The notes beneath the pieces were generated by a model, which was not told the origin of the DNA, made no database searches, and saw only the letters and a program-made list of their open reading frames with translations. This document shows positions 7,657 through 37,637 of a stretch of 38,211 bases of DNA, one piece after another (the first letter of the stretch is position 1; each line of letters starts with the position of its first letter). The stretch lies in the IMG/VR virus record IMGVR_UViG_2695420600_000008; one strand, 5' to 3'. This DNA is from a virus (taxonomy: Duplodnaviria > Heunggongvirae > Uroviricota > Caudoviricetes). Both the position numbers and the translations under genes were made by a program.

Positions 7657-7683
7657 GCTGAATCTCCCGTCCAAAAGCGCAAA

Positions 7684-7744
7684 TCATGCCATGCAGGCCG
7701 GAAACGGCCATTATCTAAAACCTCGGTTTACAGGAAACGGTAAA
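7684..7744. repeat. left arm of 61-bp perfect inverted repeat (pairs with 10778..10838)
   Basis: Reverse complement of 7684..7744 is identical to 10778..10838; contains the 26-bp gix-like site plus a 27-bp outer flank. Confidence 0.9.
7711..7736 (+). other. gix/hix-like 26-bp invertase crossover site 1 (TTATCTAAAACCTCGGTTTACAGGAA)
   Basis: Differs at one position from the Mu gix sequence as I recall it (TTATCCAAAACCTCGGTTTACAGGAA); central TC dinucleotide at 7723..7724. Confidence 0.85.
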
Positions 7745-8747
7745 CAAGGCTGGTAACGCCGTGCAAAAAAATGGCGATACGTTGTCCGGTGGACTTACTT
7801 TTGAAAACGACTCAATCCTTGCCTGGATTCGAAATACTGACTGGGCAAAGATTGGGTTTAAAAATAATTCGGATGCAGACACCGATTCCTACATGTGGTT
7901 TGAAACAGGCAACAACGGCAATGAATATTTCAAATGGAGACACCGCATCATTGGCACCCGGCCTAAAGACCTGATGAATCTTAAATGGAATGCTTTGTCT
8001 GTTCTTGTTGAAGCCCTTTTCAGCAGTGAAGTGAAAATATCGACAGTCAATGCACTGAGGATATTTAATTCATCTTTTGGTGCCATTTTTCGTCGTTCTG
8101 AAGAATGCCTGCATATCATCCCTACACGAGAGAATGAAGGGGAAAATGGTAATATAGGGCCACTACGCCCCTTTACGCTTAATCTCAGAACTGGCCGGAT
8201 AAGCATGGGGCATGGTCTTGATGTTACAGGGGATATATTTGCAAACCGTTTTGCAATTAACAGTAGTACCGGCATGTGGATTCATATGCGTGACCAGAAT
8301 GTTATTTTGGGACGTAATGCGGTATCCACTGATGGTGCTCAGGCTTTGCTCCGTCAGGACCATGCCGACCGCAAATTTATGATTGGCGGTCTGGGAAATA
8401 AGCAATTTGGCATCTACATGATTAATAACTCAAGGACAGCCAATGGCACCGATGGTCAGGCGTACATGGATAATAACGGGAACTGGCTTTGCGGCTCGCA
8501 AGTTATTCCCGGCAACTATGGCAATTTTGATTCCAGATATGTGAAAGATGTTCGACTTGGTTCACAGCAATATTATGGAGTGAACAACTGGCAAACATGG
8601 AATTTTCAGTGCCCGTCAGGCTATGTACTGACGGGGATTAACGTACAGGATACCGGAAAAAACTCTGCCGATAATATTGCAGGCGTTCATTACAGGCCAG
8701 TGCAAAAGTATATAAATGGCACTTGGTATAATGTGGCGAGTATTTAA
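7737..8747 (+). CDS. tail fibre C-terminal variable cassette Sv' (no start of its own; expressed only after inversion fuses it to H)
   Basis: Frame is open from crossover site 1 through ORF 7761..8747; encodes [46 protein letters not shown]...YVKDVRLG...[11 protein letters not shown], which matches the C-terminal portion of P2 gpH as I recall it. Confidence 0.8.
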
Positions 8748-8748
8748 T

Positions 8749-9276
8749 ATGATGCACTTAAAGAACATAAAAGCAGGTAATGCTAAAACAGTGGAGCAGT
8801 ATGAGTTAACAAAGAAGCACGGAGTCATCTGGCTTTACTCTGAGGACGGAAAAAACTGGTATGAGGAAGTGAAGAACTTTCAGCCAGACACAATAAAGAT
8901 TGTTTACGATGCAAATAATATTATTGTCGCCATCACCAAAGATGCCTCCACGCTTAACCCTGAAGGTTATAGCGTCGTTGAGGTTCCTGATATTACAGCT
9001 AATCGTCGTGCTGATGATTCCGGTAAGTGGATGTTTAAGGACGGAGCTGTGGTTAAACGGATTTATACGGCTGACGAACAGCAACAACAGGCCGAATCAC
9101 AAAAGGCCGCATTGCTTTCCGAAGCTGAATCAGTCATCCAGCCGCTGGAACGCGCTGTCAGGCTGAATATGGCGACGGACGAGGAACGCACACGACTGGA
9201 AGCATGGGAACGCTACAGTGTTCTGGTCAGCCGTGTGGATACGGCAAAGCCAGAATGGCCACAAAAGCCTGAGTAA
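8749..9276 (+). CDS. tail fibre assembly protein (tfa, P2 G / Mu U family) paired with cassette Sv'
   Basis: ORF 8716..9276; start ATG 8749 directly after the Sv' stop; [11 protein letters not shown]...[13 protein letters not shown]... typical Tfa N-terminus. Confidence 0.85.
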
Positions 9277-9282
9277 AAATTA

Positions 9283-9302
9283 AGGCCCGATATCGGGCCT
9301 TG
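9283..9302. terminator. bidirectional terminator hairpin between convergent tfa genes
   Basis: aaggcccgatatcgggcctt perfect hairpin with a flanking T-run. Confidence 0.55.
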
Positions 9303-9304
9303 TT

Positions 9305-9838
9305 TCATTCTGGTTGTTCGGGAAACGTTACTGGCAGGCTGGAGGTGTCTGTGGATTCAACCTTCTGCGCATAGAGCATCCACTCGGTTAATTTTTGTTT
9401 ATTCTCGTCGGAAATAATGCCCAGCCGTAGCTGTGAGTCCCATAGCTGGGTTTTATCCCTGACGAGCTGTAGCAGGCTTTGCTTTTCATTTTCCGCTTGT
9501 TGCCTCTGCTCTTCCCCGGTATAAGTTCGCTTTATCACTACGCCATCTTTGAACATCCATTTACCTGAAATATCAGCCCGGCGATTTGCTGTAATATCAG
9601 GAACCTCAACGACGCTTGCGCCTTCCGGATTAATTGCTGAAACATCCTTTTCAATACAAATAATAACGCCGTTGTGGTCATAGACCATTTTCAACGTATC
9701 AGGCTGAAAGTTCTTTTGTTCCTCATACCAGTTTTTCCCATCCTCTGTATAAAGCCATTTGATGTTAAATTGTTTCGTTAGCTGGTATTGCTCTTTTGTT
9801 TCAGGATTACCAGCAGAAATGTTTTTTAAGTGCATCAT
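9305..9838 (-). CDS. tail fibre assembly protein (tfa) paired with cassette Sv
   Basis: 177 aa; [40 protein letters not shown]...; paralogous to 8749..9276. Confidence 0.85.
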   Translation of the reverse strand: MMHLKNISAGNPETKEQYQLTKQFNIKWLYTEDGKNWYEEQKNFQPDTLKMVYDHNGVIICIEKDVSAINPEGASVVEVPDITANRRADISGKWMFKDGVVIKRTYTGEEQRQQAENEKQSLLQLVRDKTQLWDSQLRLGIISDENKQKLTEWMLYAQKVESTDTSSLPVTFPEQPE

Positions 9839-9840
9839 CG

Positions 9841-10785
9841 TTAAATACTCCCCGCGTTATACCACGTCCCATTAATGCAATACTGAATTGGCCTTGCCTG
9901 AGTTGTATCAATTAGTTCATCTCTGTTTGAGTTAACGGAACCGGTAACAACATAACCTGACCTGTCAGACCATCCGGGACCATTCCATGTCTGAACAGAT
10001 AACAGACCACCAAGGCGAATACCTGTAATAAACCTTGAGTTACATTCTGCCTGCGTATATGCACCAACATCTCCCGCAGAGGGTTTGCGGGTTGTGGTGT
10101 AAAACTCTGACCAGTCAGCTTCAAAGCCATAACCATCACGCGCTGAACGATAAAAAATACCGCCGTTCCTGTAATTCACGCGGAACTGTACAGCAGGGCA
10201 GCTCCCCGTATTCATATTGAAGTGGAGGATTAATGTCGATGCGCCACCAATGTTTGCGTTATAGACCCCGCTATTCCAGTTCCAGCCAACAGCTTTATCA
10301 TTTCCGACAGTGCTTCCTGTTTGCCCTAAAGCAAATGCAGGTTGTTGATTTTTCGTGTTGTAGTCTCGTCGCCAGCCAGGAGCGTAAGCATCACCATGAT
10401 TAATATAAGTGAATTGAGCGTTAGTAATTCCGCCACCGCTGGACGTGCTCGGCGTGGTAACGCGTATGGTCATTGCGCCGCGAGTGCCAATAACTTCCAC
10501 CACAGCACCTGCAAGACAAATATTTCCGCAACCTGTATCTGTAATGACCTTATTATTTGCATAAGCCCATGAGCCTTTGCACATCCAGTAAGGATGGTTA
10601 AATGCTCCCTGACTCTCCAGCCACGAAATAAATTGCGCGGTTGTCCAGACCTGACTATCGCCACCAATATTCAGCCATGAGCTATATGCGCGGCAGGCAC
10701 CAATATTTTTGGTGAAGGTATCTTTCCCCGGAATATCTGCGCCGTTCTGGTTTTTCTGTAATGCGCCAGAAGCCTGATTTACCGT
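9841..10785 (-). CDS. tail fibre C-terminal variable cassette Sv (start-less, in frame with crossover site 2)
   Basis: ORF 9841..10584 stays open upstream to site 2 (…[27 protein letters not shown]…); ends INGTWYNAGSI like cassette Sv'. Confidence 0.8.
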   Translation of the reverse strand, partial: TVNQASGALQKNQNGADIPGKDTFTKNIGACRAYSSWLNIGGDSQVWTTAQFISWLESQGAFNHPYWMCKGSWAYANNKVITDTGCGNICLAGAVVEVIGTRGAMTIRVTTPSTSSGGGITNAQFTYINHGDAYAPGWRRDYNTKNQQPAFALGQTGSTVGNDKAVGWNWNSGVYNANIGGASTLILHFNMNTGSCPAVQFRVNYRNGGIFYRSARDGYGFEADWSEFYTTTRKPSAGDVGAYTQAECNSRFITGIRLGGLLSVQTWNGPGWSDRSGYVVTGSVNSNRDELIDTTQARPIQYCINGTWYNAGSI

Positions 10786-21802: not shown

Positions 21803-23554
21803 ATGATTCAGGACGCTTTTGTGCGCCAGCGTGCGCGGCAACTTTACTGGCAGGGTTATCCGCCCGCAGAAATATCACGTCTGATGGGAATAAACCCGAA
21901 CACGATTTATGCGTGGAAAAAACGCGACCAGTGGGATGAAACGCCACCCGTGCAGCGTGTCACGCAGTCCATCGATGCGCGCCTCATCCAGCTTACTGAA
22001 AAACAGAATAAAACAGGTGGTGACTTTAAGGAAATAGACCTGCTGACCCGGCAGCTTAAAAAACTGCATGATGGCCAGCCGGATGCGACGGCCACAGGAA
22101 AGAAAGGCCGGGCGAAAAAACTCAAAAATCATTTCACGCCGGAACAGATTGCCGCACTGCGGGAAAAAATCATCAGCAGGCTGGAGTGGCATCAGCGGGG
22201 CTGGTTTGACTCCCTGACGCTTTGCAGGGAAGCCGGGATACGTAACAGGATGATCCTGAAATCCCGACAGATTGGGGCGACCTGGTATTTTGCACAGGAA
22301 GCACTGCTGATGGCGCTGCGTGACGATGTGGCACAACCTTACCAGCGTAACCAGATTTTTTTGTCTGCGTCGCGTCGTCAGGCGTTCCAGTTTAAAAGCA
22401 TTATTCAGAAGGCCGCGGCTGAAGTCGATGTGGAGCTGAAAGGGGGCGATAAAATCATCCTCTCCAACGGCGCAGAGATGCATTTTCTCGGCACTTCTGC
22501 TGCGACGGCGCAATCTTACACGGGCAATTTTTATTTTGATGAATTTTTCTGGGTCAGTCGCTTTGCTGAACTGCGCAAGGTGGCTGGCGCTATGGCAACC
22601 CTCAGCGGACTGCGGCGCACCTGCTTCTCCACGCCATCCACCGAAACGCACGAGGCATACGCCTACTGGAACGGCGACCGCTGGAACGAGAAAAAGGCCG
22701 CGCATAAACGCCAGCGTTTTTCTGTGGACTGGAAAACGCTGCATAACGGGCTTATCTGCCCTGACCGGACGTGGCGGCAAATTGTCACGCTGGAAGATGT
22801 GGTTAATCACGGCTGGAAACACACCGATATTGATGAAATTCGTGATGAAAACACCGAAGACGAGTTCCGCAATCTCTATATGTGTGAGTTTGTCCGCGAA
22901 GGGGAATCGGCATTTAACCTGAATATCCTGATTGGCTGCGGTGTTGACGGATACGACGACTGGAAAGACTGGAAACCCTTTGCCCCCCGCCCGATGGGGA
23001 ATCGTCCGGTATGGATTGGGTATGACGCAAACGGCAGCAGTGGTAACGGCGACAGCGGCGCTGTGTCCGTGGTGGTTCCTCCGGCTGTTCCTGGTGGTCG
23101 TTTCAGAACGGTGGAGACGCGACGCGTTCAGGGGCTGGAATTTGAAGAGCAGGCCAGAGTTATTGAAGAGTTCACGTATCGCTACAACGTGGAACACATC
23201 GGCATTGATGCGACGGGAGGGCACGGGGATGCCGTCTATCAGATAGTGAAACGGTTTTTTCCCGCCGCCATCCCTTACACCTTCACGCTGTCATCAAAAC
23301 GGTCGCTGGTACTGAAAATGCTGCAAATAATGCGTGCCGGGCGGTGGGAATACGATCGCGCCGAACGCGAGCTGGTTGCGGCCTTTAACGCCGTGCGTAA
23401 GGTGAAAACACCGGGCGGTTTTATCACTTACGAAACGGACCGCGCGAGGGGGATCAGCCACGGCGACCTTGCGTGGGCAACCATGCTTGCTGTCATTAAC
23501 GAACCGATTGGCGGCGAAGGAGAAAACGAGCGTTTCACGGTTATGGAGTTCTGA
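21803..23554 (+). CDS. P: terminase large subunit (ATPase) gpP
   Basis: 583 aa; divergent from O as in P2; N-terminal helix-turn-helix-like region and central ATPase region. Confidence 0.8.
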   Translation: MIQDAFVRQRARQLYWQGYPPAEISRLMGINPNTIYAWKKRDQWDETPPVQRVTQSIDARLIQLTEKQNKTGGDFKEIDLLTRQLKKLHDGQPDATATGKKGRAKKLKNHFTPEQIAALREKIISRLEWHQRGWFDSLTLCREAGIRNRMILKSRQIGATWYFAQEALLMALRDDVAQPYQRNQIFLSASRRQAFQFKSIIQKAAAEVDVELKGGDKIILSNGAEMHFLGTSAATAQSYTGNFYFDEFFWVSRFAELRKVAGAMATLSGLRRTCFSTPSTETHEAYAYWNGDRWNEKKAAHKRQRFSVDWKTLHNGLICPDRTWRQIVTLEDVVNHGWKHTDIDEIRDENTEDEFRNLYMCEFVREGESAFNLNILIGCGVDGYDDWKDWKPFAPRPMGNRPVWIGYDANGSSGNGDSGAVSVVVPPAVPGGRFRTVETRRVQGLEFEEQARVIEEFTYRYNVEHIGIDATGGHGDAVYQIVKRFFPAAIPYTFTLSSKRSLVLKMLQIMRAGRWEYDRAERELVAAFNAVRKVKTPGGFITYETDRARGISHGDLAWATMLAVINEPIGGEGENERFTVMEF

Positions 23555-24600
23555 TGAGCAGAAAAAATAAAAAAGTGCGCATGAGTTCACGCATTGATCT
23601 CGCTGATGCGCTCAGGAAAGAATCGTCGCTCAGTGCATTCACATTTGATGGTCCTTACCGCCTGACCGGGCATGACCTGCTGGACAATATGTACTGTGCT
23701 GATAACGGGCGGTGGTATGAAACCCCGGTGGACTGGTACGGTCTGGCAAGAGCTGCCCGGCAAACGTCCTGGCATCAGTCTGCGCTTTACTTTAAGCGCA
23801 ATGTATTGCTCGGCTGCTATATTCCGCACCCGCTGCTTTCCCGGCAGGATTTCTCGGCGCTGGCGCTGGACTGGTTTGTGTTCGGTAACGCATTCCTTGA
23901 GCTTCGGAGCAATATGCTCGGCGAACCGCTTAAATTACGGCACGCCCTGGCGAAATACATGCGACGCGGAAGCGATCTTGAATCATGGTGGTATGTGCAG
24001 GATGGCAAGGATGCGTTTCAGTTTCGTCCTGGCAAAGTGTGCCACCTGATGAATCCGGATATTAACCAGGAAATCTACGGCATGCCGGAATATCTTGGCG
24101 CATTACTCTCGGCCAGCCTTTCTCATTCGGCGGACATGTTCAGAAAACTGTACTACGACAACGGATCCCACGCCGGGTGCATCATCTACATCGGTGCAGC
24201 GCAGGTAAACCGCGAAAGCATGGACTCCCTGAAAGAAACGCTACAGGGGGCACGTGGTGGTGGTGCGTTTAAAAACGTGCTCATTCATGCGCCCAACGGG
24301 GGCAAAGAGGGGGTGCAAATTTTGCCGTTCCAGCAGATCACCGCAAAGGATGAGTTCATGAATGTTAAGGCGGCATCCCGTGATGATGTGCTGGCTGCGC
24401 ACCGCGTTCCGCCGCAACTGATGGGGGCGATGCCGGGCGAAAAAAGTGCGTTTGGTGATGTGGAGAAGGCCGCGCGGGTTTACGCAATTAACGAGCTGAT
24501 GCCCGTCATGGAGGCCATGAAGCACATCAATGACTGGCTTGGCGAAGAGGTGATCCGCTTTAACCCTTACGCACTGTTAGACACCCAGCCCACATCCTGA
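23554..24600 (+). CDS. Q: portal (capsid portal) protein gpQ
   Basis: 348 aa directly downstream of P with an ATGA overlap; P2 Q position and size. Confidence 0.8.
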   Translation: MSRKNKKVRMSSRIDLADALRKESSLSAFTFDGPYRLTGHDLLDNMYCADNGRWYETPVDWYGLARAARQTSWHQSALYFKRNVLLGCYIPHPLLSRQDFSALALDWFVFGNAFLELRSNMLGEPLKLRHALAKYMRRGSDLESWWYVQDGKDAFQFRPGKVCHLMNPDINQEIYGMPEYLGALLSASLSHSADMFRKLYYDNGSHAGCIIYIGAAQVNRESMDSLKETLQGARGGGAFKNVLIHAPNGGKEGVQILPFQQITAKDEFMNVKAASRDDVLAAHRVPPQLMGAMPGEKSAFGDVEKAARVYAINELMPVMEAMKHINDWLGEEVIRFNPYALLDTQPTS

Positions 24601-25091
24601 CGCGCTTCGCTTGTCTGCTGCTTCGCCGGGGCATAAAAAATTTATGCCCCGACTCTCCAGCTCCTGTATCAGTCAGATAATTTCACGACGCTTTCCTGCT
24701 GATTGCCATCATCGACAGTCAGACTCTTACGCAATCCCACCTCGTTGACTGCATATTCTCGCCGTCTCAGTGCGATTTTGACGGCCTTACCTTTCACCCC
24801 ATCAAATCAAAAGCCCTCACGTCTTTTTCACGCTCAGCGTGAGAAATACAGCCATTCTGTTGTATCTCTGCGACATCGTTCAGGGAATGCTATTTACCCC
24901 CTGAAACGCGGGCTGTTCCCCCGTCACCTGCGCGCAGAAAAAACGCGTTTTTTTGTGCATGCACGGATCCTTGACGGATCCAGCCGCCACGCGGGCCGGA
25001 AGGGCAAAAAGTCGTTCAAAAAAATTGTGCAAATTTGTGCACTATTGTGCATTTATAAAATCAACTAAAAAACACCTAGTGTGACTTACCT
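24601..25091. other. probable cos/packaging region (non-coding, repeat- and palindrome-rich)
   Basis: Non-coding gap between portal and the end of the early operon, where P2 cos lies; contains palindrome ggggcataaaaaatttatgcccc (24628..24650), palindrome aaaaaacgcgtttttt, direct repeat acggatcc x2 and phased TTGTGCA repeats. The exact P2 19-nt cos sequence was not found. Confidence 0.4.
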
Positions 25092-25277
25092 CTACCACTC
25101 GATCGGCACGTAGTCATTAAGTTCCGGAGACCAATTGCACTTTTCACATCTGTGTTTTCCATTCTGGCAGATACATAAACGATAACGGCCACAATGCGGG
25201 CACCCATTTTCACCATTATCATAATCACCGAGCGACCATTCCTGCATAAGCAGCTCTTCTTCATCATCATTTAGCAT
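25092..25277 (-). CDS. hypothetical zinc-ribbon protein (cysteine-rich, 61 aa)
   Basis: CPHCGRYRLCICQNGKHRCEKC cysteine cluster; acidic N-terminus; last gene of the early operon next to cos. Confidence 0.5.
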   Translation of the reverse strand: MLNDDEEELLMQEWSLGDYDNGENGCPHCGRYRLCICQNGKHRCEKCNWSPELNDYVPIEW

Positions 25278-25291
25278 TAATCCCCCTTGAG

Positions 25292-25531
25292 CTATTTACT
25301 CTTCTCGGCCCTCAAAATCATACGAGAACCATCATCCAGCTCCCAATTAATTTCACCGCCTTCTGCCATGACTAGATGCCAAACGAGTTGAGCGGCCTCG
25401 TTGGTTACATCGCGACCGCGATCATTTCCTACGCGGCGTTTTGTTCCGTCTCCTAAGTCACGCATTTTTGCCAATACGATGGTTTTTGATAGCGGTGAAA
25501 AACCAAGCTGTAGTCGTGCTGAATTACTCAC
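25292..25531 (-). CDS. hypothetical protein (79 aa)
   Basis: ORF in operon context, overlapping the upstream gene by 4 nt; no recognisable motif. Confidence 0.45.
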   Translation of the reverse strand: MSNSARLQLGFSPLSKTIVLAKMRDLGDGTKRRVGNDRGRDVTNEAAQLVWHLVMAEGGEINWELDDGSRMILRAEKSK

Positions 25532-26052
25532 TGGCTGCCCCCTTTGTACTGTGTTAACTCTTCCTGCTCCTGCATCATGCGATTGACCTGAACGCGTGTG
25601 CGTCGAACGGCAAAATTAAATTGAAACATGAGCCGGAACATTTCTGATGCTTCCGTGTGAGCATCACGGATAGGTGACAGGCGGTACAGTTCTGCCTCCG
25701 TAGCTTGTTGAATCAATGACAGATCAAATTGAAGTGCGGGTCTGGTACATTTTGCACATCTGGCAGCAAGCTCCGGTATTAGTCTCTTAACGAAGGTGTT
25801 TTGCACCGCTTTGTTGATTTGTGTCTGCATCCAAATCGCAAATTTCAGCGAACGCATAAGTTTGATAGCCTCGGGCAGCGGCAGATAGATCATGCTGGTA
25901 GATTTGGGTGGTTGGTGAACCATCTTCACGGATACGCGATTTCGCAGCGTTCGGAAAATCGTGTTCCCAACAACAGCTTCTACGGATACAGGACAGGGAG
26001 CCAGACCAGCCCGCAGTGCTTCTTTCATTAGCATGTATTCGTATTTTTTCAT
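25528..26052 (-). CDS. hypothetical protein (174 aa)
   Basis: ORF in operon context; no recognisable family by eye. Confidence 0.5.
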   Translation of the reverse strand: MKKYEYMLMKEALRAGLAPCPVSVEAVVGNTIFRTLRNRVSVKMVHQPPKSTSMIYLPLPEAIKLMRSLKFAIWMQTQINKAVQNTFVKRLIPELAARCAKCTRPALQFDLSLIQQATEAELYRLSPIRDAHTEASEMFRLMFQFNFAVRRTRVQVNRMMQEQEELTQYKGGSQ

Positions 26053-26112
26053 CGTGTTTTCCTCGTGCGGGGCGACAGTGCACCCCGATAAAATTAAAAG
26101 CCGTCAAATTCG

Positions 26113-26424
26113 TCATTCAGGAAATAATGCCCGGATATTCCCTGCTATCTGACTGGTTATCTGTGCGGTTGGTACTGGCTGTGGCACGGGGCGTTCTGTC
26201 CTGGTTTGTGTCACCGATAACGCCTCATCGTCAGCCCATGCAGCCAGTCGGTAAGCCTCTGCTGGATTCATTTTCAGAAGTGCCAGCCCGGCCAGAAAAG
26301 CCACGCGTTGGCCGCTTTTGCGGGCTTCTGGTGTAAGGCTGCCCAGCCAGGCGCATGCTTCGCTTTCGTTCTTGACGGCCGCAGGCTTCAGATAGAAACT
26401 TATCCGTCTGGTTGGTGTCGTCAT
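26113..26424 (-). CDS. parR: ParR/StbB-like centromere-binding protein (putative)
   Basis: ORF 26113..26559; preferred start 26424, giving ~104 aa directly downstream of parM; resembles plasmid R1 ParR as I recall it (RRISFYLKP vs RRTIAFKLNP; C-terminal IRALFPE vs LRSLFPKE). Confidence 0.55.
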   Translation of the reverse strand: MTTPTRRISFYLKPAAVKNESEACAWLGSLTPEARKSGQRVAFLAGLALLKMNPAEAYRLAAWADDEALSVTQTRTERPVPQPVPTAQITSQIAGNIRALFPE

Positions 26425-26428
26425 TGGT

Positions 26429-27388
26429 TTACTCCTTGTCCATTGCGTACAGCCCATTAACCAGAGCAAACTGTGGCACCCCGTCCGCGATGAAAGTCGC
26501 ATTAACTCCGCAGGCTTCGCGGATAGCGGGTGCCACAATCTCCGCCCCTCCACCGACAACCATCACCCGCCCGTAACCCGAAAAACCCGCCAGCGCGCGG
26601 ATCACGCGTTGTTTCAGTGTTTCTTCCTTTTCACGAATAACCGCCATCAGGCTGGCGTAATGCGCGTCATTGTGGATGTGCTGGCGCAGCCAGGCTTCAT
26701 CATGGCGATGTTCGATAATGGTATTGGCGATGTGGTGACTGGTGCGCATACCGTTAGTGGCCATCACCGACAGTACGGCATCGGCCATCAGAGAAACGCC
26801 TACGTGTGGATCGCAAAACACCTGGCTGATACCTGCCAGTTGCCCCTGAACCTTTGCCACATCCAGCGTGGTTCCGCCCAAATCCACAATCAGCAGGGAT
26901 TCAAACGGACTCATGTCAGCCAGTGCCTTAAAGCCAGCCGGAATGGATTCAGGCATAACCCGCACGTTACGGATAGTGAATGCTTCGCCGTTCTGGTACT
27001 CCACCGGGCGCATAACGTTCGCTTTTTTGCGGTTGATGTTGGCCATGTCCGGCTGTGCGTTTGTGTCGAAATACTCGCTCAGTGGCAGGGTGACAACCAC
27101 ATCCACCTCCTGTGGCGTGATGCCTGATTTGACCAGCGCGTGATGAATGGCAATGACATTTACATCGCTGTACTGGTATTGCGTGTCGGTTGTCTGGACA
27201 AAGCGATCGCTGACCGGATCAAAACCATAGCGCACGCCATCAAGCATGTAGTTCGCGGGCTGCATGCCACCGAACGGCGCAGACCATTCCGACTTGAAGC
27301 TGTTCGGGCTGATGGCGTTGCGGCGTTCGCCGTTCTCAGTCCATGCCAGCTTGATGTTGGTGGAGCCGTCGTCGATACAAATTTTCAT
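26429..27388 (-). CDS. parM: ParM/StbA-like actin-type plasmid segregation ATPase
   Basis: 319 aa; MKICIDDGSTNIKLAW…ISPNSF…YSDVNVIAIHHAL…VMPESIPAG…LIVDLGGTTLDV…GVSL…VVGGGAEI strongly resembles R1 ParM including the actin-fold phosphate loops. Confidence 0.8.
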   Translation of the reverse strand: MKICIDDGSTNIKLAWTENGERRNAISPNSFKSEWSAPFGGMQPANYMLDGVRYGFDPVSDRFVQTTDTQYQYSDVNVIAIHHALVKSGITPQEVDVVVTLPLSEYFDTNAQPDMANINRKKANVMRPVEYQNGEAFTIRNVRVMPESIPAGFKALADMSPFESLLIVDLGGTTLDVAKVQGQLAGISQVFCDPHVGVSLMADAVLSVMATNGMRTSHHIANTIIEHRHDEAWLRQHIHNDAHYASLMAVIREKEETLKQRVIRALAGFSGYGRVMVVGGGAEIVAPAIREACGVNATFIADGVPQFALVNGLYAMDKE

Positions 27389-27415
27389 GTCGCTTTTCCT
27401 TATGTTGATTAATTA

Positions 27416-27531
27416 ATCGTTTACGGGATTCTGAAATCCCGTTTTTGCCTGTTTTGTGCGCGCTTCATATATCGCTGCGCGTTTTTTGCTCATTTACGGG
27501 ATTCGTGAGTCCCGTTTCTGTCTGTTTTTTG
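27416..27531 (+). repeat. two copies of a ~42-bp hairpin-containing direct repeat upstream of parM (candidate parC centromere/operator)
   Basis: Copy 1 hairpin acgggattctgaaatcccgt (27423..27442) then ttttgcctgttttgtg; copy 2 hairpin acgggattcgtgagtcccgt (27496..27515) then ttctgtctgttttttg; copy 2 lies in the 3' end of the A coding region. Confidence 0.5.
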
Positions 27532-30287
27532 TTTCCACTGGTCAGGCCACCCCGCAGCAGGTCTGCTTTGCGGCGGGCGCGTTCAGTGGTTTCACTGATT
27601 CTCTGTGCGTGCTCTGCGTCGCGGATGGCGCGCAGCATGTCAGAAAGCACGGTAACGGGTGTTTTCATGGTGTTCTGGTCCTGCTGAAGTGTGGATGCCA
27701 GGCGTGCGGCGGCTTCAGGGTCTGATGCCCCCAGCTGTGTCAGATAGCTGGCGACCGGGTTATGGCGGATCTCCGTGCTGCTTACGCCATGATTACGGCT
27801 CAGGCGCTGCCAGAGCTGCGTGATTCGGCTGTCCGGGCGGGTATCCGGTTTGCGTACAATTTCAAATCCCTGCGGTGCAATGATGCTGCCGTCAACGTAC
27901 AGACTGCCGCCCCGTAACAGGTGCTGCATCTGTTGTTCACCGATATGCAGGCCGAGAGATTCAGCAGACTCCCGCCATTCTTTAGCGAGTAATTCGTGGT
28001 TATCAGGCAAAGGCCGCTGCTGTTTGCGGCTCTGTGTCCAGCTCTGCATTTCATCACTGCTGTTTTTTGCCTGTTTGTCACGAAGCGAACGCATCAGCGC
28101 CCGGCGTTCGTGCCGTTTCAGTGAGCGCATCCATTCATCCACATCAACGCCGTCAGGGAGCTGCGGCCACGGTGCTGGCCGTTCTTCCGGCTGTTCTGTC
28201 CCGTTGTTGTCCGTTTCCTGTACACGGGGACAGTTATTGCCACGAGTCCAAGGGGCGGCAGGGCCGCCCTGAAGGTCAAAACCATTTTCGCGGGCGCTGT
28301 CTTCCGCTTCCGGTTTGCGTCTTACCAGCTTCCAGTTATCCGGATGCGTGCACACACGGGAGGATTCCCCGATGAGTGGTGACCAGATCCCGTAAATCTG
28401 TACGCTCTGTTCGCCGTAATCGTTCAGCTCATCGGCGAGGTCGTAGGCGGTGCGAATCAGGTAGTCTTTGCGTGGAACAAGTACGCCGCCCTGTTTCTCT
28501 ATGTAGGTGGCAAAACATCCGGCATCAGCGGCGGCAAGAACCGCATCCATTGCGTCATCCTTCAGCCGTTGCGGGCCTTCCGGGTTGCGTGCCATCTGGC
28601 TGGCAAGGCGGCGCAGTTCACGCCATACCTGGCGGGAGGGGATGCCAAAGAACTGGAACTGGCGGACCCGGTGAAGGCGCGCCCAGCCGATGGCGCGTTC
28701 CACGCTCTCGGCCATTGATTTTCCGGTTTCGTGGTCAACGCGTGGCTTGCCCGTTTTCGGGTCGATGCCATCCACGGCGCGGCTGTCCAGGTTTTTCCCG
28801 ATGTAGGTGGCGATGTAGCTGGTTGGCGTGCCTTTTGAGCCGTCTACATACTCCGCCTTAAAGCGCGGAGTTATGTCATCGCCCAGCTCGTGACGATCTT
28901 CCTGAATGGCAATATCGCGGGTGTGGGACACAATGGTGTCGATTTCTTCCGGATGAGCAAAGACCATCATATGCCAGTGCACGGTGCCGTCATGGTGAGG
29001 CTCCGCCGTGCGGATGCCATACCAGCGCAGGCCGTCGCGGTTCAGTTTTTTGCGGACCGTCGCAAAAAACGTGTTAACCAGGTAATCGCTGGAGTCGCGC
29101 ATTGTGGCCCCGTTCCATTTGGGATTCGGATGACCGTTCTCCGTTGTGGCGTGGTATTTTGACGGGCAGGTGACAGTCAGAAACACCGCTTTGTCGCCAC
29201 GGGCTTCGGCCAGAAGTTCCAGCCCCTTCATGGTGGCCATCATTTCTGCCTTACGGTGAACCGGGTTACTTACTCCCGCGTAATACACCGTCTCGAGATC
29301 AATCGTGAACCCGTCTTCATTTTCCAGCATGAAACTTTTCAGGAAATCGCGTGTTTTCTCGCGCTGTGCGCGAAACTCGCTTAACGCGTCCTGGCTCAGA
29401 TAGGGCGATGTTTTTCTGGAAACCAGACAGGCGGCGCGAAGTTGTTCTTCTCTCCACTCGCAACGTAACAGCCACAGTTTGCGTTTCCACCATTCCGCAC
29501 AGGTCAGGCGAAGGATTGCGCCCGGCAGCAGTTCTGTGTCCGGTTCGTGCCTCCGGTCTTTGTCTGTTGTCAGTGCGTCATAATGCGGAGGCATGGCGTG
29601 TAAGTGTAACGCCATGCGGGCCAGCATCTGATACGCCTTCAGCGTTACATCCATGGTCAGCTCGCCATCAGTCGCGCCAAAACCATCGCAGAGTTTTTCG
29701 AAGGTGCTGCTGAACATCGCCGCCGTCATGGTGGCCAGCGTCTGTATCTGGTGTTTGTTGAGTTGCGGCAGGTAAAGCAAATCGTCCAGGCGTTCACGTC
29801 CGGCAAGGGAGCGATAACCCGGTGTCAGCCAGTGTCCGTCAGTGCGATCCAGACGTTCGAATATTTTGCGCAGGGTTCCGCGTGCATAGCGTTCCGCCTG
29901 CCAGCTCTTTTTGCCTTTCCGGCGATCGGCTTCCTGTTTTTTGCGCAGGAAGGAGAGGTGGCGAATAAGCGGATCGCGCAGATAGGACGGCAGCAGGCGC
30001 AGCGAGGCCATGGCTTCATCCACCGCGCCGCGTGCCTGTTTTCTGGCGTCTCCTGCCAGTGTGATGGTTTTGTCCTGTTTTTCCTGTGCGTCCAGGCTTT
30101 TATTAATCAGGTTGCCCAGTGGCGTGGCGGAGAACGCCGCATCAGCCATTTCCTGGCGGCGCTCGTTCTCTGCCCGGTGGGCATCCAGCCAGGAGGAAAG
30201 CGCGGATTCAGGAGCGGGGATCCCCGTTCCTTCACGCCCCACTGCGTGGCGCGGTTGTTGCCAGTCCCTGATGTACTCTGCCGTCAT
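27465..30287 (-). CDS. A: replication initiation endonuclease gpA (rolling-circle initiator)
   Basis: 940-aa ORF; central region (…FLTVTCPSKYH…WYGIRTAEPHHDGTVHWHMMVF…YIATYIGKNLD…) resembles the P2/186 GPA family; long C-terminal extension relative to my memory of P2 A (~760 aa). Confidence 0.8.
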   Translation of the reverse strand: MTAEYIRDWQQPRHAVGREGTGIPAPESALSSWLDAHRAENERRQEMADAAFSATPLGNLINKSLDAQEKQDKTITLAGDARKQARGAVDEAMASLRLLPSYLRDPLIRHLSFLRKKQEADRRKGKKSWQAERYARGTLRKIFERLDRTDGHWLTPGYRSLAGRERLDDLLYLPQLNKHQIQTLATMTAAMFSSTFEKLCDGFGATDGELTMDVTLKAYQMLARMALHLHAMPPHYDALTTDKDRRHEPDTELLPGAILRLTCAEWWKRKLWLLRCEWREEQLRAACLVSRKTSPYLSQDALSEFRAQREKTRDFLKSFMLENEDGFTIDLETVYYAGVSNPVHRKAEMMATMKGLELLAEARGDKAVFLTVTCPSKYHATTENGHPNPKWNGATMRDSSDYLVNTFFATVRKKLNRDGLRWYGIRTAEPHHDGTVHWHMMVFAHPEEIDTIVSHTRDIAIQEDRHELGDDITPRFKAEYVDGSKGTPTSYIATYIGKNLDSRAVDGIDPKTGKPRVDHETGKSMAESVERAIGWARLHRVRQFQFFGIPSRQVWRELRRLASQMARNPEGPQRLKDDAMDAVLAAADAGCFATYIEKQGGVLVPRKDYLIRTAYDLADELNDYGEQSVQIYGIWSPLIGESSRVCTHPDNWKLVRRKPEAEDSARENGFDLQGGPAAPWTRGNNCPRVQETDNNGTEQPEERPAPWPQLPDGVDVDEWMRSLKRHERRALMRSLRDKQAKNSSDEMQSWTQSRKQQRPLPDNHELLAKEWRESAESLGLHIGEQQMQHLLRGGSLYVDGSIIAPQGFEIVRKPDTRPDSRITQLWQRLSRNHGVSSTEIRHNPVASYLTQLGASDPEAAARLASTLQQDQNTMKTPVTVLSDMLRAIRDAEHAQRISETTERARRKADLLRGGLTSGNKKQTETGLTNPVNEQKTRSDI

Positions 30288-32721: not shown

Positions 32722-33033
32722 ATGTCAATAGAGATATCAAAGAAGCTAAAAGCAATTCGAGAATCTGAGGGGCTTAGTCAGGCAAAGTTCGCGGATTCAA
32801 TAGGTATTGCGGTTGGTACGGTTAAGCAATACGAGACTGGTATTCGAGGTGTGGGAACGGAGGTTTTACTGAAAATCACAATGCACCCGGAATTTAAAAA
32901 ATACACTACGTGGTTGATGAGTAACGAAACAAATGAGGCTGCTGGGCAGATCAGTCCTTCTCTCTCCCCTGATGGGCCAGAAAACACATCGTCTTCTCAA
33001 AAATCCCGCAAGACTGGCACACAGCCCGGCTAA
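32722..33033 (+). CDS. C: P2 C-type immunity repressor
   Basis: ORF 32620..33033; preferred start ATG 32722 giving 103 aa; helix-turn-helix LSQAKFADSIGIAVGTVKQYETG and the C-terminal …FKKYTTWLMSNE…GQISP… pattern resemble P2 C. Confidence 0.75.
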   Translation: MSIEISKKLKAIRESEGLSQAKFADSIGIAVGTVKQYETGIRGVGTEVLLKITMHPEFKKYTTWLMSNETNEAAGQISPSLSPDGPENTSSSQKSRKTGTQPG

Positions 33034-33082
33034 TCATGGAACGCTGGGGGCATGGTGGTCTTGTAACGCTGGGGCTTCACGA

Positions 33083-34060
33083 ATGAGCATAAAATCAATT
33101 CCGGGAGGGTATCTTCTTGACATGCGTCCTGAGGGGCGTAAAGGCAAACGCATTCGCAAAAAATTTAAAACGAAATCGGATGCAGTTTTATATGAGCGGT
33201 GGGTGCTGGCGCAACAGCATAACAATGAGTGGAAAGGAAACTCCATTGATCGCCGTCCGCTGTCAGTGCTTATTGACTTGTGGTGGAAATACCACGGCCA
33301 GCTAATGAAGTCAGGGCATAACACGCGCCTTAAATTGCTGCGCTTGAGTGAGGCAATGGATGACCCGTGCGTGCATAAACTTAATACAACGATGCTCACC
33401 GAGCTACGTGTGTCCAGGATAGAGCAGGGGATACAGCCCAGCACCATAAATCGAGAGATTGGGGCGTTAAGCGCGATGTTTACCGCACTCATCTCATCCG
33501 GCCATTTTCTTAACGATAACCCCGTTCAAGGCCTTAAAGGAATGAAGGTTAACGAGCGTGAAATGGGATATCTGAGTAAGTCTGAATGTGTTCAGTTGCT
33601 GGATGCACTGGCTGAAAATCCCGATGAACGGCTGGCCGTCGAAATCCTTCTGTCGACCGGGGCGCGATGGGGCGAGGTAGCGGCACTGGAGCAGCGCCGT
33701 GTTCTTCATTGTCGAATCACTTTTTCAAAAACGAAGAACAGCAAAAACCGTACCGTTCCTATTTCTGAAAGCCTGTTTGAAAAGATCAAAAAACGGGGCG
33801 GGAAACTGGTGTTTCCGACGCTGGATTATTCATTGGTTCGCGATGTCATCAAAACGGTCGCACCTGATGTTCCTGACGGCCAGGCTGTTCATGCGCTGCG
33901 CCACACCTTCGCCAGTCATTTCATGATGAACGGCGGCAATATTCTGACGCTCCAGAAAATTCTGGGGCACGCAAAGATTCAGACAACGATGATTTATGCC
34001 CATCTTGCGCCGGATTACTTGCAGGATGCGGTGAGGTTTAATCCCTTGGGAGGAATGTAA
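33083..34060 (+). CDS. int: P2-type integrase (tyrosine recombinase)
   Basis: ORF 32933..34060; preferred start 33083 (MSIKSIPGGYLLDMRPEGRKGKRIRKKF…), ~325 aa; C-terminal catalytic motifs LSTGARWGE, HALRHTFASHFMMNGG.ILTLQKILGH and MIYAHLAPDYLQDA (catalytic Tyr) match P2 Int. Confidence 0.9.
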   Translation: MSIKSIPGGYLLDMRPEGRKGKRIRKKFKTKSDAVLYERWVLAQQHNNEWKGNSIDRRPLSVLIDLWWKYHGQLMKSGHNTRLKLLRLSEAMDDPCVHKLNTTMLTELRVSRIEQGIQPSTINREIGALSAMFTALISSGHFLNDNPVQGLKGMKVNEREMGYLSKSECVQLLDALAENPDERLAVEILLSTGARWGEVAALEQRRVLHCRITFSKTKNSKNRTVPISESLFEKIKKRGGKLVFPTLDYSLVRDVIKTVAPDVPDGQAVHALRHTFASHFMMNGGNILTLQKILGHAKIQTTMIYAHLAPDYLQDAVRFNPLGGM

Positions 34061-34062
34061 CT

Positions 34063-34563
34063 ATGGAAATAAAAAAACCTACAAAAAAAGAGTTATATGA
34101 CTATTTACTATCGAAATATATAGAAGATAAATGCAAAGAAGAAGCTGATGAAATCAATAAGAAGTCGATGAGTCGTGTCAAAAAACATAAAGAGCGGCTG
34201 ATGGAGATTACGCCAGAAATCTTCTTCCGTTTCTTGTCTGAGAAGGGGGTCTCCAGTGTCTGCCCTTCATGTGGATCGTCGCGATTATCTGTTCCAGAAA
34301 GTATGGATCTTTGCTGGGATAAAAATAAGAAACCAGAAAATTTTAACAATCTACCCCTGGAGGAACAGAGTGAGTTAATTAAAGAGAACATAAAGCATTA
34401 TGTATCTTATGCTTTTTTGGGTGATGTTAAGAGCATACCTGATATGCGCAAAACTTATTACACGCTGCATTGCCTGAATTGTGGTTACCTGAGCCTTTAT
34501 CGTACGTCTGCGGTGCTGAAGTGGTTGGAGAAAGACAAAGCGCAGGATGGTGATAATGGGTAA
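34063..34563 (+). CDS. hypothetical zinc-ribbon protein (166 aa), AT-rich moron gene
   Basis: Low GC by eye; two CxxC pairs (CPSCGSS … CLNCGY); lysine/glutamate-rich N-terminus; no homologue recognised. Confidence 0.55.
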   Translation: MEIKKPTKKELYDYLLSKYIEDKCKEEADEINKKSMSRVKKHKERLMEITPEIFFRFLSEKGVSSVCPSCGSSRLSVPESMDLCWDKNKKPENFNNLPLEEQSELIKENIKHYVSYAFLGDVKSIPDMRKTYYTLHCLNCGYLSLYRTSAVLKWLEKDKAQDGDNG

Positions 34564-35101
34564 TGTAGCAAGAAATCTTTTCGGTAATTCAGCAGGTAGT
34601 GTGTCGCATTCTGAGCGTGATGTGCTTTATCATGGTGGCGATGGCGGCAGTAGTGGAGGCGGAATGTCAGATAAACTTGAAAGGCGAATTGAGCGGCTCG
34701 AAGGTGATTTATCGCTAACAAGAAACGACCTTGCGACGCTTGCTGAACGCACTACAAACCTCTCAACTAAAGCCGATGTTGGTGAGGTGAAAGGTGAACT
34801 CAAAGCAGACATAGCACATCTGAAAGGTGATCTTGAATGCGATATTGCGAATCTGAAAGGTGAGCTTAAATCTGATACAGCTAACCTGAAAGAGCAGCTC
34901 AAATCAGACATTAACAGCCTGAAGGGTGAGCTTACCGAAGCGATGGATAAACGCTTTGACAAGATTATGGATGAGATGAATCGGCGGTTTGACAAGGTTG
35001 ATGATAATACGAAGTGGCGTTGGAGTGGCATTATTGTGCCAGTGTGCACAACCATTTTCACAGCGGCGGTTGCTGTATTTGTTGCTAAATTTGTTGGCTG
35101 A
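34547..35101 (+). CDS. hypothetical tail-anchored coiled-coil membrane protein with five 11-residue repeats (184 aa)
   Basis: Repeats LKGELKADIAH / LKGDLECDIAN / LKGELKSDTAN / LKEQLKSDINS / LKGELTEAMDK; glycine-rich N-terminus; C-terminal transmembrane helix WSGIIVPVCTTIFTAAVAVFVAKFVG; overlaps the upstream gene by 17 nt. Confidence 0.55.
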   Translation: MVIMGNVARNLFGNSAGSVSHSERDVLYHGGDGGSSGGGMSDKLERRIERLEGDLSLTRNDLATLAERTTNLSTKADVGEVKGELKADIAHLKGDLECDIANLKGELKSDTANLKEQLKSDINSLKGELTEAMDKRFDKIMDEMNRRFDKVDDNTKWRWSGIIVPVCTTIFTAAVAVFVAKFVG

Positions 35102-35293: not shown

Positions 35294-36274
35294 ATGCTGA
35301 CACTTGCCCGCCAACAACAGCGACAAAATATTCGCTGGTTATTATGCCTGTCAGTTTTGATGCTGCTGGCGCTTCTCTTAAGCCTTTGCGCCGGTGAACA
35401 ATGGATTTCGCCAGGTGACTGGTTTACTCCTCGTGGCGAACTGTTCGTCTGGCAAATTCGCCTGCCACGTACGCTGGCTGTATTGCTGGTTGGTGCGGCG
35501 CTGGCTATATCCGGCGCTGTAATGCAGGCGTTGTTTGAAAATCCTCTGGCAGAACCTGGACTACTTGGCGTCTCTAACGGCGCAGGCGTGGGGCTTATCG
35601 CCGCGGTATTGCTTGGGCAAGGGCAACTCCCCAACTGGGCGCTAGGGCTGTGTGCGATTGCTGGCGCGCTTATCATCACTTTAATACTCTTACGTTTCGC
35701 CCGTCGTCATCTTTCGACCAGTCGGTTATTGCTGGCTGGCGTTGCATTAGGGATTATCTGTAGCGCACTAATGACGTGGGCTATCTACTTTTCCACCTCT
35801 GTTGATTTACGTCAGCTGATGTACTGGATGATGGGCGGTTTTGGCGGCGTAGACTGGCGGCAAAGCTGGCTGATGCTGGCATTGATCCCCGTGTTGTTGT
35901 GGATCTGTTGTCAGTCCAGGCCGATGAATATGTTAGCACTTGGCGAGATCTCGGCGCGGCAACTGGGTTTACCCCTGTGGTTCTGGCGCAATGTGCTGGT
36001 GGCAGCGACCGGCTGGATGGTTGGCGTCAGTGTGGCGCTGGCGGGTGCTATCGGCTTTATTGGTCTGGTGATCCCACATATTCTTCGGTTGTGTGGTTTA
36101 ACCGATCATCGCGTATTACTTCCCGGCTGCGCGCTGGCAGGGGCGAGCGCAGTGCTGCTGGCCGATATTGTAGCGCGCCTGGCATTAGCTGCCGCAGAGC
36201 TGCCTATTGGCGTGGTCACCGCAACGTTGGGTGCGCCGGTGTTTATCTGGTTATTGTTAAAAGCAGGACGTTAG
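35294..36274 (+). CDS. btuC: vitamin B12 ABC transporter permease BtuC
   Basis: 326 aa, [25 protein letters not shown]…, full-length match to E. coli BtuC as I know it. Confidence 0.95.
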
Positions 36275-36336
36275 CCGCAAAAAGACGGTCTATGATTAAA
36301 AGCTAAGATTTTTACTGACCACACCCAGGAGAAACG

Positions 36337-36888
36337 ATGCAAGATTCCATTCTGACGACCGTAGTGAAAGATATCGACGGTGAAGTGACCACGCTGGAGA
36401 AGTACGCCGGTAATGTGCTGTTGATTGTCAATGTCGCCTCAAAGTGTGGCTTAACGCCGCAATATGAGCAGTTGGAGAATATTCAGAAAGCCTGGGCCGA
36501 TCGAGGTTTTGTGGTGCTGGGATTCCCGTGCAACCAGTTTCTGGAACAAGAACCGGGCAGCGATGAAGAGATTAAAACTTACTGTACCACCACATGGGGG
36601 GTGACGTTCCCGATGTTCAGTAAGATTGAAGTTAACGGCGAAGGACGCCATCCGCTGTATCAAAAATTGATTGCCGCAGCGCCGACCGCAGTCGCGCCGG
36701 AAGAGAGCGGATTCTATGCCCGTATGGTCAGCAAAGGTCGTGCACCGCTGTACCCTGATGATATTTTATGGAATTTTGAGAAATTTTTAGTTGGCAGGGA
36801 CGGATTGGTCATCCAGCGTTTTTCCCCGGATATGACGCCGGAAGACCCCATTGTGATGGAAAGCATTAAACTGGCGTTGGCAAAATAA
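36337..36888 (+). CDS. btuE: glutathione peroxidase-family protein BtuE
   Basis: 183 aa; [47 protein letters not shown]…; btuCED synteny. Confidence 0.95.
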
Positions 36889-37637
36889 TGTCTATTGTGA
36901 TGCAGTTACAGGATGTTGCGGAATCTACCCGCCTGGGGCCACTTTCTGGCGAGGTTCGGGCTGGGGAGATCCTGCACCTGGTGGGGCCGAATGGCGCGGG
37001 TAAGAGTACCTTACTGGCACGAATGGCCGGAATGACCAGCGGTAAGGGAAGTATTCAGTTCGCGGGGCAACCACTGGAAGCATGGTCCGCAACAAAACTC
37101 GCGCTGCATCGCGCCTATCTTTCACAACAGCAGACGCCGCCGTTTGCAATGCCGGTCTGGCACTATCTGACACTGCATCAGCACGATAAAACGCGTACCG
37201 AACTACTGAATGATGTCGCAGGGGCGCTGGCTCTTGATGACAAACTCGGACGTAGCACCAATCAACTTTCCGGCGGTGAATGGCAACGCGTACGTCTTGC
37301 TGCGGTGGTGCTGCAAATCACACCACAAGCCAATCCCGCAGGCCAATTGCTGCTTCTTGATGAGCCGATGAACAGTCTTGATGTTGCGCAACAAAGTGCG
37401 TTAGACAAAATTCTGAGCGCTCTGTGTCAGCAAGGACTGGCGATTGTGATGAGCAGTCACGATCTCAACCACACATTGCGTCATGCGCATCGGGCGTGGT
37501 TGCTAAAAGGTGGAAAAATGCTGGCCAGTGGACGCAGAGAAGAGGTGCTCACGCCGCCAAATCTGGCGCAGGCCTATGGGATGAATTTTCGCCGTCTGGA
37601 TATCGAAGGTCACAGAATGCTGATTTCGACCATCTGA
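36888..37637 (+). CDS. btuD: vitamin B12 ABC transporter ATP-binding protein BtuD
   Basis: 249 aa; Walker [10 protein letters not shown], signature LSGGEWQR, Walker B LLLLDEP. Confidence 0.95.

Follow-up and report, generated by a model that had tools for sequence, protein, structure and literature searches.

Three small genes, here called g1, g2 and g3, lie between the partition gene parR and the portal gene of a phage genome in the IMG/VR virus record IMGVR_UViG_2695420600_000008. This record is a stretch of 38,211 nucleotides (nt), which we refer to as the window, and it holds a prophage of the P2 family, P88-like (genus Xuanwuvirus) and integrated beside host genes. The three genes are on the minus strand, in the same orientation as the replication gene A and the partition genes parM and parR. 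g1 (26052..25528) begins with an ATG preceded by a GAGGAA ribosome-binding site and encodes 174 amino acids (aa). g2 (25531..25292) has a GTG start and encodes 79 aa, and g3 (25277..25092) begins with an ATG behind its own AAGGGGG ribosome-binding site and encodes 61 aa. The initial annotation of this DNA described them as a translationally coupled three-gene cargo island and a candidate undescribed accessory or defence module, with defence offered as a hypothesis only. Sequence comparison gives good support to another reading, that the content of this locus is a mosaic of three independently shuffled small cassettes which do not form a system.

The three genes are all under purifying selection. 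The ratio of non-synonymous to synonymous substitution rates (dN/dS) for g1 is 0.27 in comparison with a homologue of 70% identity and 0.33 with a close one, and for g2 it is 0.09–0.12. For g3 the non-synonymous divergence (dN) is 0.21–0.32 and the synonymous sites are saturated. Because selection acts on all three they are real genes and not chance open reading frames (ORFs). The sizes and positions that were initially assigned to them are confirmed. The stop of g1 and the start of g2 share 4 nt (GTGA). A gap of 14 nt separates g2 from g3, which has a ribosome-binding site of its own, so a strict overlap is found in the first pair only.

An ATG at 26116 overlaps the stop codon of parR (ATGA). 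In some relatives the equivalent ATG reads in frame into g1 and produces forms of 195–197 aa (P0003, L128). In the window its frame differs from that of the g1 ATG (26052), therefore g1 starts here at its internal ribosome-binding site. A 64-aa ORF at 25076-25270 that overlaps g3, and which was the choice of the ORF caller used in our census, was rejected; the 61-aa frame is conserved across 36 clusters, which make up the g3 family.

The genes occupy a variable cargo slot (25052..26111) that extends from the stop codon of parR to a conserved cos-proximal block. The slot was mapped by comparison with two related loci, L001 and L002, whose flanks are 97–99% identical to those of the window up to 25051 and from 26112 onwards. 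The gene order is A, parM, parR, g1–g3, a non-coding block and the portal gene. Gene A (27465-30287, minus strand) is the upstream gene of the operon, it is an ORF whose relatives are annotated as replication endonucleases and whose homologues contain the Phage_GPA domain. parM (26429-27388, minus strand) encodes an actin-like segregation ATPase with the Pfam domains StbA_N and ParM_N. parR (26113-26424, minus strand) matches the Pfam family Plasmid_stab_B with an E-value of 5e-23, is a 312-nt gene in relatives, and forms the right-hand border of the slot. On the left the landmark is a GpQ-type portal gene (23554-24600, plus strand), an ORF annotated as portal in relatives. This gene is convergent with g3, and about 490 nt of non-coding DNA lie between them. 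Most of this DNA belongs to the block at 24601..25051, which is presumed to contain cos and which remains 97–99% identical between loci despite their differing cargo. Phage P88 and its relatives are 94–98% identical to the window over the A-parM-parR-portal region.

We carried out a census of the interval from parR to cos in 75 P88-like IMG/VR contigs. Between near-identical flanks the content of the slot differs, its length ranges from 535 to 3715 nt, and it shows 32 architectures built from 48 protein families. In P2-like phages cos lies between gpA and gpQ (PMC9122126), and this cos-proximal interval is their main hotspot for defence genes (PMC9122126, PMC13586616). In P2 the equivalent position is taken by the old/tin locus. 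The initial annotation was thus right about the position: the genes stand in the published GpA–GpQ hotspot, where relatives carry genes that match defence models.

The combination of g1, g2 and g3 is restricted to one lineage. The exact trio is found as 100% identical DNA in three contigs (L137, L138 and L139), one of which is the window itself, and a fourth copy is present in L140 (IMGVR_UViG_2850808358_000008). In L140 an insertion sequence (IS) of the IS3 family is inserted after codon 57 of g1, and the rest of this copy of the trio is 99.9% identical. The element is about 1.26 kb long, occupies slot positions 231–1490 and contains ORFs of 100 and 300 aa. Because of this insertion g1 is taken to be dispensable for carriage. 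The trio was found in none of 5,426 complete Escherichia coli genomes. Across diverged lineages the three genes were not found together, they co-occur only in DNA that is 100% or 99.9% identical. Each gene recurs elsewhere with other neighbours, which argues that there is no three-gene system. The module that was first proposed does not survive this comparison, since its genes assort independently, the junction between the first two is generic, and the trio is confined to a single DNA-identical lineage.

g1 encodes a basic protein of 20 kDa with an isoelectric point (pI) of 10.0. No family of Pfam, PHROGs, NCBIfam or PADLOC matches it, and sequence and profile searches against the PDB found nothing. 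Only eight g1 clusters are present among 5.8 billion proteins. An exhaustive HMMER profile search of 1.84 billion representatives returned three g1 representatives and no remote relatives, and a tblastn search of 50,697 phage records gave no match. The AlphaFold2 model, built on an alignment of six sequences, has a predicted local distance difference test score (pLDDT) of 49.8 and is too poor to interpret; with low confidence, the predicted protein may be largely helical.

Every g1 context that was recovered is the slot of a P88-like prophage. g1 is present in 15 of the 75 census loci, where it is followed directly by an ead/Ea22 gene in nine, by g2 and g3 in four and by other genes in two. 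Many E. coli chromosomes, and pS2122_1, a plasmid of Salmonella, also have an ead/Ea22-like gene after g1. The slot of the 70%-identical relatives reads 66 aa, SSB, zf-C4_ClpX, g1 homologue, Ead_Ea22, 75 aa and 167 aa. The counterpart of g1 in L001 is WP_000759755, within a block of 98.5% nucleotide identity. This protein is listed by Rousset et al. 2022 in their Table S5A, in the arrangement 'StbA + Plasmid_stab_B + hypothetical (WP_000759755) + Ead_Ea22' (PMC9122126).

g2 encodes a basic protein of 8.8 kDa which belongs to the Pfam family DUF7446 (PF24233), with a score of 61 bits against a cutoff of 24.1 over positions 2–67 of the 70 in the profile. It also matches phrog_1578 with an E-value of 2.1e-32. 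The family comprises 372 clusters across Enterobacterales. DUF7446 was mentioned in no paper that we found. The AlphaFold2 model of g2 (30 sequences, pLDDT 58.6) is too poor to interpret. A Foldseek search with this model against the PDB and BFVD gave nothing at an E-value of 0.001 or below besides a sequence homologue in phage EcP1, and sequence and profile searches of the PDB gave no match.

The g2 family is found in 21 phage records, none of which contains g1 or g3. In the P22-like Lederbergvirus vB_EcoP-683R2 the homologue lies in an interval that runs bet ... DUF7446 ... Ea22 ... excisionase, the exo-xis region. The coliphage Bas82, which was isolated from river water, has another homologue in its array of small early genes. 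The family is also present, with neither g1 nor g3, on non-mobilizable plasmids of about 48 kb and about 90 kb among phage-type neighbour genes, and in the one plasmid examined for this the homologue adjoins an ead/Ea22-like gene. The slot of E. coli FDAARGOS_943 contains zf-C4_ClpX, a 75-aa gene, DUF7446 and g3, with no g1. Homologues of g2 with 131–138 aa were considered as possible g2–g3 fusions and were found not to be fusions.

g3 encodes an acidic protein of 7.2 kDa (pI 4.4) with six cysteines. It matches phrog_24897 with an E-value of 2.6e-46 over its whole length, residues 1–60 aligning to positions 1–60 of the 60 in the profile. The claim that the three proteins resemble nothing recognisable therefore stands for g1, and it fails for g2, which has the DUF7446 and phrog_1578 matches, and for g3. 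Among 27 homologues of g3 the residues C26, C29, C35, C44 and C47 are invariant. The pairs C26-x2-C29 and C44-x2-C47 have the spacing of a C4 zinc ribbon. A core of 40 residues is nearly invariant, a W-x-L-G-x-Y motif is likewise invariant, and the N-terminal tail is acidic. The C4 zinc-ribbon mini-proteins eL43/L37Ae, TFIIB/TFIIS and Zn_ribbon_IS1595 share with g3 two CxxC knuckles at ribbon spacing and give weak profile matches; unlike them, g3 has two additional conserved cysteines and a family-specific W-x-L-G-D-Y-D-N-G motif. The Pfam family Zn_ribbon_IS1595 reaches 17.1 bits, short of its cutoff of 25.4. Profiles of PDB structures give only sub-threshold zinc ribbons (eL43 and TFIIB at an E-value of about 0.1, best hits 0.08–0.3), thus neither a curated model nor a solved structure provides a zinc-ribbon match. 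The earlier description of an acidic cysteine-cluster zinc ribbon is supported by the pI and the invariant CxxC pairs and is left without a curated match above threshold.

Contigs of P22-like phages, and of others, have g3 homologues with no DUF7446 neighbour. In P2-like prophages of Salmonella without ParMR (L217-L223) a homologue with 90–95% identity is the last gene before cos, and the genes ahead of it are unrelated, with lengths of 136, 532 or 230 aa. In these prophages g3 and about 190 nt of downstream non-coding DNA (24898-25307 in the window) are 84–88% identical to the window, the portal genes are 70–73% identical. This pattern suggests either a conserved cos flank or a recent spread of a block made up of g3 and cos. 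Among the 5,426 complete E. coli genomes g3 was found in one.

The boundary between g1 and g2 is marked by a conserved sequence, AAAGGGGGCAGCCAGTGAG (25527..25545, minus strand), which contains a ribosome-binding site, the KGG(S/N)Q codons of the upstream gene and the GTGA overlap of stop and start. It corresponds to a 19-nt motif, AAAGGRGGCAAnCAGTGAG. The motif encodes the last five residues (K-G-G-N/S-Q) of the upstream protein and the 'MS' start of the downstream protein. It is present in at least 120 IMG/VR contigs with at least 132 occurrences. Among 132 occurrences it links at least five real upstream families, including ead/Ea22 itself and the g1 family, to at least nine downstream families. 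The downstream gene is ead/Ea22 in at least 100 cases and DUF7446 in at least 12, and one downstream partner is a 335-aa protein resembling PAPS reductase. The junction joins g1 to ead/Ea22 in L001 and L004-6, in L002 it joins a 75-aa gene to DUF7446, and in L003, a plasmid locus, it joins ead/Ea22 to DUF7446. In temperate phages of enterobacteria it connects many families, unrelated to one another, around ead/Ea22 genes.

From 25524 rightwards the window follows the L001 type, and up to 25552 it follows the L002 type. By this comparison the window is a recombinant, with a left half of L001 type (A-parMR-g1) and a right half of L002 type (...DUF7446-g3-cos). As the homology switches between the two types at 25524-25552, the crossover that created the combination is placed within the junction, and the junction would be the actual substrate of recombination. 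In the boundary-sequence model of phage mosaicism, which is summarised in PMC3233612, short conserved linker sequences at gene boundaries likewise flank interchangeable modules. The junction differs from the linkers of this model in that it overlaps coding sequence and imposes a KGGNQ C-terminus and an 'MS' N-terminus on unrelated proteins.

In a consensus scan for promoters none of g1, g2 and g3 had a promoter-like site ahead of it, the gap between parR and g1 included, and the sole match of the scan falls within g2. A scan for terminators from parR to g3 found a single site, inside g2 at 25345..25323, which was discounted because it lies within conserved g2 coding sequence. Just past g3 there is a weak terminator-like hairpin followed by a T-run (25042..25027, minus strand), which likely ends the early/partition transcription unit. 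It is reasonable to regard g1–g3 as the distal end of the A-parMR operon, and the operon assignment of the initial annotation is borne out as far as can be read from the DNA. The hairpin lies within a run of three close, partly palindromic TGCACAA repeats (25021-25050), which is located between the stop codon of g3 and the cos-proximal block, exactly at the left edge of the slot (25051/25052). No RNA family of Rfam was found within 24400-27600.

Our overall best explanation, which we hold with moderate confidence, is that g1, g2 and g3 are independent early accessory cassettes in the cargo slot of P88-like phages and not one system. The genes would be transcribed by read-through from the early A-parMR unit, as they show no promoter of their own and no credible terminator precedes them. 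The junction would couple the translation of neighbouring genes and would also serve as a short patch of homology for cassette exchange. The products are small proteins with no recognisable catalytic domain and would be expected to bind host or phage factors. Such binding, early after induction or infection, may tune host physiology or the balance of lysis and lysogeny in the way of the exo-xis genes, and on this analogy g1–g3 probably modulate host physiology or a developmental decision. They would not be expected to act as an anti-phage system expressed by the prophage. The variable kind of cargo is already known; what is new is the combination, with one true ORFan (g1) and two proteins of uncharacterised families.

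The exo-xis genes of lambdoid phages are expressed early and affect lysogenisation and induction in lambda and Phi24B (PMC3824215, PMC7093339). The region (ea22/ead, ea8.5, orf60a, orf61, orf63) is likewise an array of small overlapping early genes, and the shared junction connects both g1 and g2 with ead/Ea22-like genes. An exo-xis location is seen directly for the g2 family, in vB_EcoP-683R2. g1 only adjoins Ead_Ea22 within P88-like slots, and for g3 no such location was seen. The window differs from the lambdoid case in that its host is a P2-family myovirus, the array is on the replication/partition operon and not on the PL operon, and none of g1–g3 is homologous to a characterised exo-xis protein. 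One class of cargo in the census, to which the genes of the window belong, consists of co-oriented and overlapping arrays of small genes, with zf-C4_ClpX in about 30 loci, Ead_Ea22 in about 20, and several unknowns. Ead/Ea22 and zf-C4_ClpX are early genes of exo-xis type. Sister cassettes in such arrays (L186, L164, L160) include a 176-aa protein with a sub-threshold match to the Mom family (E-value 1.2e-4) and a 161-aa protein with no Pfam match that looks methyltransferase-like by eye. It is possible that these two proteins have anti-restriction functions.

Some observations weigh against the explanation as independent early accessory cassettes. The slot is a genuine hotspot for defence genes, and six of eight unknown loci in the equivalent hotspot of P4 proved to be defensive (PMC13586616). 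The analogy with exo-xis rests on neighbourhood and gene style and not on homology, because the g1 and g2 models are of low confidence (pLDDT 49.8 and 58.6) and the fold searches were empty. Five P88-like loci have g2 or g3, and in each of them the two genes are neighbours. A functional linkage between these two may exist; the five loci consist of 99–100% identical DNA. Promoters of the parMR type, such as that of R1 parMRC, are usually active in the carried state, and low-level expression of g1–g3 in lysogens is possible.

No family in PADLOC-DB 2.0 matched g1, g2 or g3 at E-values up to 1, thus the database check proposed in the initial annotation gave no hit for any of the three genes. Cargo from the same slot in relatives served as a control and was recognised readily (IetA 3.6e-89, AbiLi 2.4e-27, RmrA 2.8e-35). 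The cargo of the slot in L210, L185, L144/L147 and L141 comprises ietA with a gene for a 734-aa protein, AbiLi/AbiLii, an RmrA-like protein beside its 183-aa partner, and PDC-M04A. We take the 734-aa protein beside IetA as a putative IetS partner. Some of the cargoes that match defence models are large, and some run opposite in strand to the early operon. A DUF4760 protein is found in other relatives, as is a pair which by reading of the sequence resembles a Doc/Fic toxin with its antitoxin and which has only weak PADLOC matches, to PDC-S23. The P2 old/tin hotspot likewise lies between the replication and portal genes by cos and is hypervariable among near-identical backbones. The genes old and tin have promoters of their own in the lysogen. 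Unlike old and tin, the cargo of the window consists of three small proteins in which no domain was recognised; their genes have the orientation of the early operon, and no promoter was detected for them.

These comparisons bear on the possibility that at least one of the genes, g1 foremost, is an undescribed exclusion or defence factor, expressed in the lysogen, like old and tin of P2, at a low level through transcription that runs on from the ParR-autoregulated parMR promoter. The position in the GpA–GpQ hotspot is consistent with such a factor, as are the ietA, AbiL, RmrA and PDC-M04A model matches in the slot of relatives, the confinement of g1 to the slot, and the frequency with which unknown hotspot genes turn out to be defensive (PMC13586616). 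We nevertheless consider it unlikely, since none of the three genes has a PADLOC match or a promoter that could be detected, and no enzymatic, NTPase, nuclease or membrane domain was found in them. Opposite-strand cargo exists in relatives and some of it matches PADLOC, the window genes on the other hand are co-oriented with the early operon and coupled to it. In addition an IS interrupts g1 in L140, g2 is present in a river-water coliphage, and the arrangement with g1 is listed by Rousset et al. but not as defence; these authors class the partition-system arrangements of the hotspot as 'other functions' (PMC9122126). Nothing beyond position has thus emerged in favour of an undescribed three-gene defence module.

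In another reading g2 and/or g3 would be early lytic counter-defence proteins, binders or mimics which neutralise a host immune protein in anti-restriction or against abortive infection. Both genes are small, rapidly shuffled and part of the early operon, g2 is found in temperate phages as well as in the river-water isolate, the acidic N-terminal tail of g3 stands beside a strongly conserved zinc ribbon, and the sister cassettes include the weakly Mom-like and the methyltransferase-like proteins. On the other side neither protein is homologous to an anti-defence protein that has been described, both families are of unknown function in PHROGs, and the poor g2 model and the empty fold searches give no structural support. 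We regard a counter-defence role as possible but doubtful. A packaging role for g3 is very unlikely. As an accessory factor associated with cos or packaging it would have a reason for its constant last place before cos or the terminase genes. Cos-proximal homologues follow unrelated genes in three further P2-like backbones, a homologue in a P22-like contig lies just upstream of two unannotated genes that from their size may encode terminase, with the portal beyond, and between lineages g3 and the adjoining ~190 nt are more conserved (85–88%) than the portal genes (72%). The end of an operon may simply be permissive for insertions, and a conserved cos flank could be a recombination arm. g3 cannot be needed for packaging because it is rare: a single one of 5,426 complete E. 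coli genomes has it, and most P88-like relatives, with a near-identical cos block, lack it. It is most improbable that g1–g3 are accessories of ParMR partition that stabilise the plasmid state or the prophage. In the transcription unit they come immediately after parR; parMR is conserved, however, while the cargo downstream takes 32 architectures, and g2 and g3 are present in phages with no ParMR.

The reading of g1–g3 as independent early accessory cassettes has consequences for how this locus is used in the search for defence genes. The case calibrates guilt by position at the cos-proximal hotspot of P2. In the quarter of P2-like phages that carry ParMR the slot holds cargo of two kinds, genes that match known or candidate defence models and read-through arrays of tiny cassettes of exo-xis type, and to count the latter as defence systems would inflate lists of candidates. 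The junction provides a searchable handle with which the pool of cassettes across enterobacterial phages can be listed, and it allows a test of whether short boundary sequences drive the exchange of modules. A defence or anti-defence role for any of g1–g3, if true, would be a modest addition and would bring no new principle. It is rather unlikely that g1 is a new single-protein exclusion factor, or g2 and g3 a counter-defence pair, expressed through read-through from the parMR promoter. If either were true, co-oriented arrays of small genes would be a second, unrecognised layer of genes for phage–phage conflict, and the 19-nt junction a dedicated site for their exchange.

Upstream of the slot two copies of an inverted repeat, ACGGGA-N8-TCCCGT, are present at 27423-27442 and 27496-27515, each followed by TAAAyGA. 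The copies are 73 nt apart, one is in the gap between A and parM and the other within the 3' end of gene A, and they are accompanied by direct repeats at 27417-27427 and 27490-27500. The inverted repeats could be parC, the binding site of ParR, or an operator. They do not act as terminators on the minus strand.

The integrase gene is located at 32933-34060. Beyond it, at 35294-37637, are three genes with FecCD permease, glutathione-peroxidase and ABC-ATPase domains, which from their domain content we read as the btuCED operon of the host. The interval between the integrase and these transport genes (34063-35101) has a low GC content of 0.42 and contains an ORF of 166 aa and another of 184 aa, the latter of which gives coiled-coil-like matches; neither has a credible match in Pfam or PADLOC. 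This interval may be a second cargo slot, in the equivalent of the int-att position. Elsewhere in the window, on the minus strand at 7069-7674, a resolvase/invertase gene that encodes an HTH_7 domain and is similar to the Gin and Cin invertases adjoins two opposed sets of genes, each composed of a Caudo_TAP tail-fibre assembly gene and a larger ORF. The larger ORF on the plus strand (7761-8747) has no Pfam match and the one on the minus strand contains the gp37_C tail-fibre domain. The whole region (7069-10584) looks like an invertible host-range segment.

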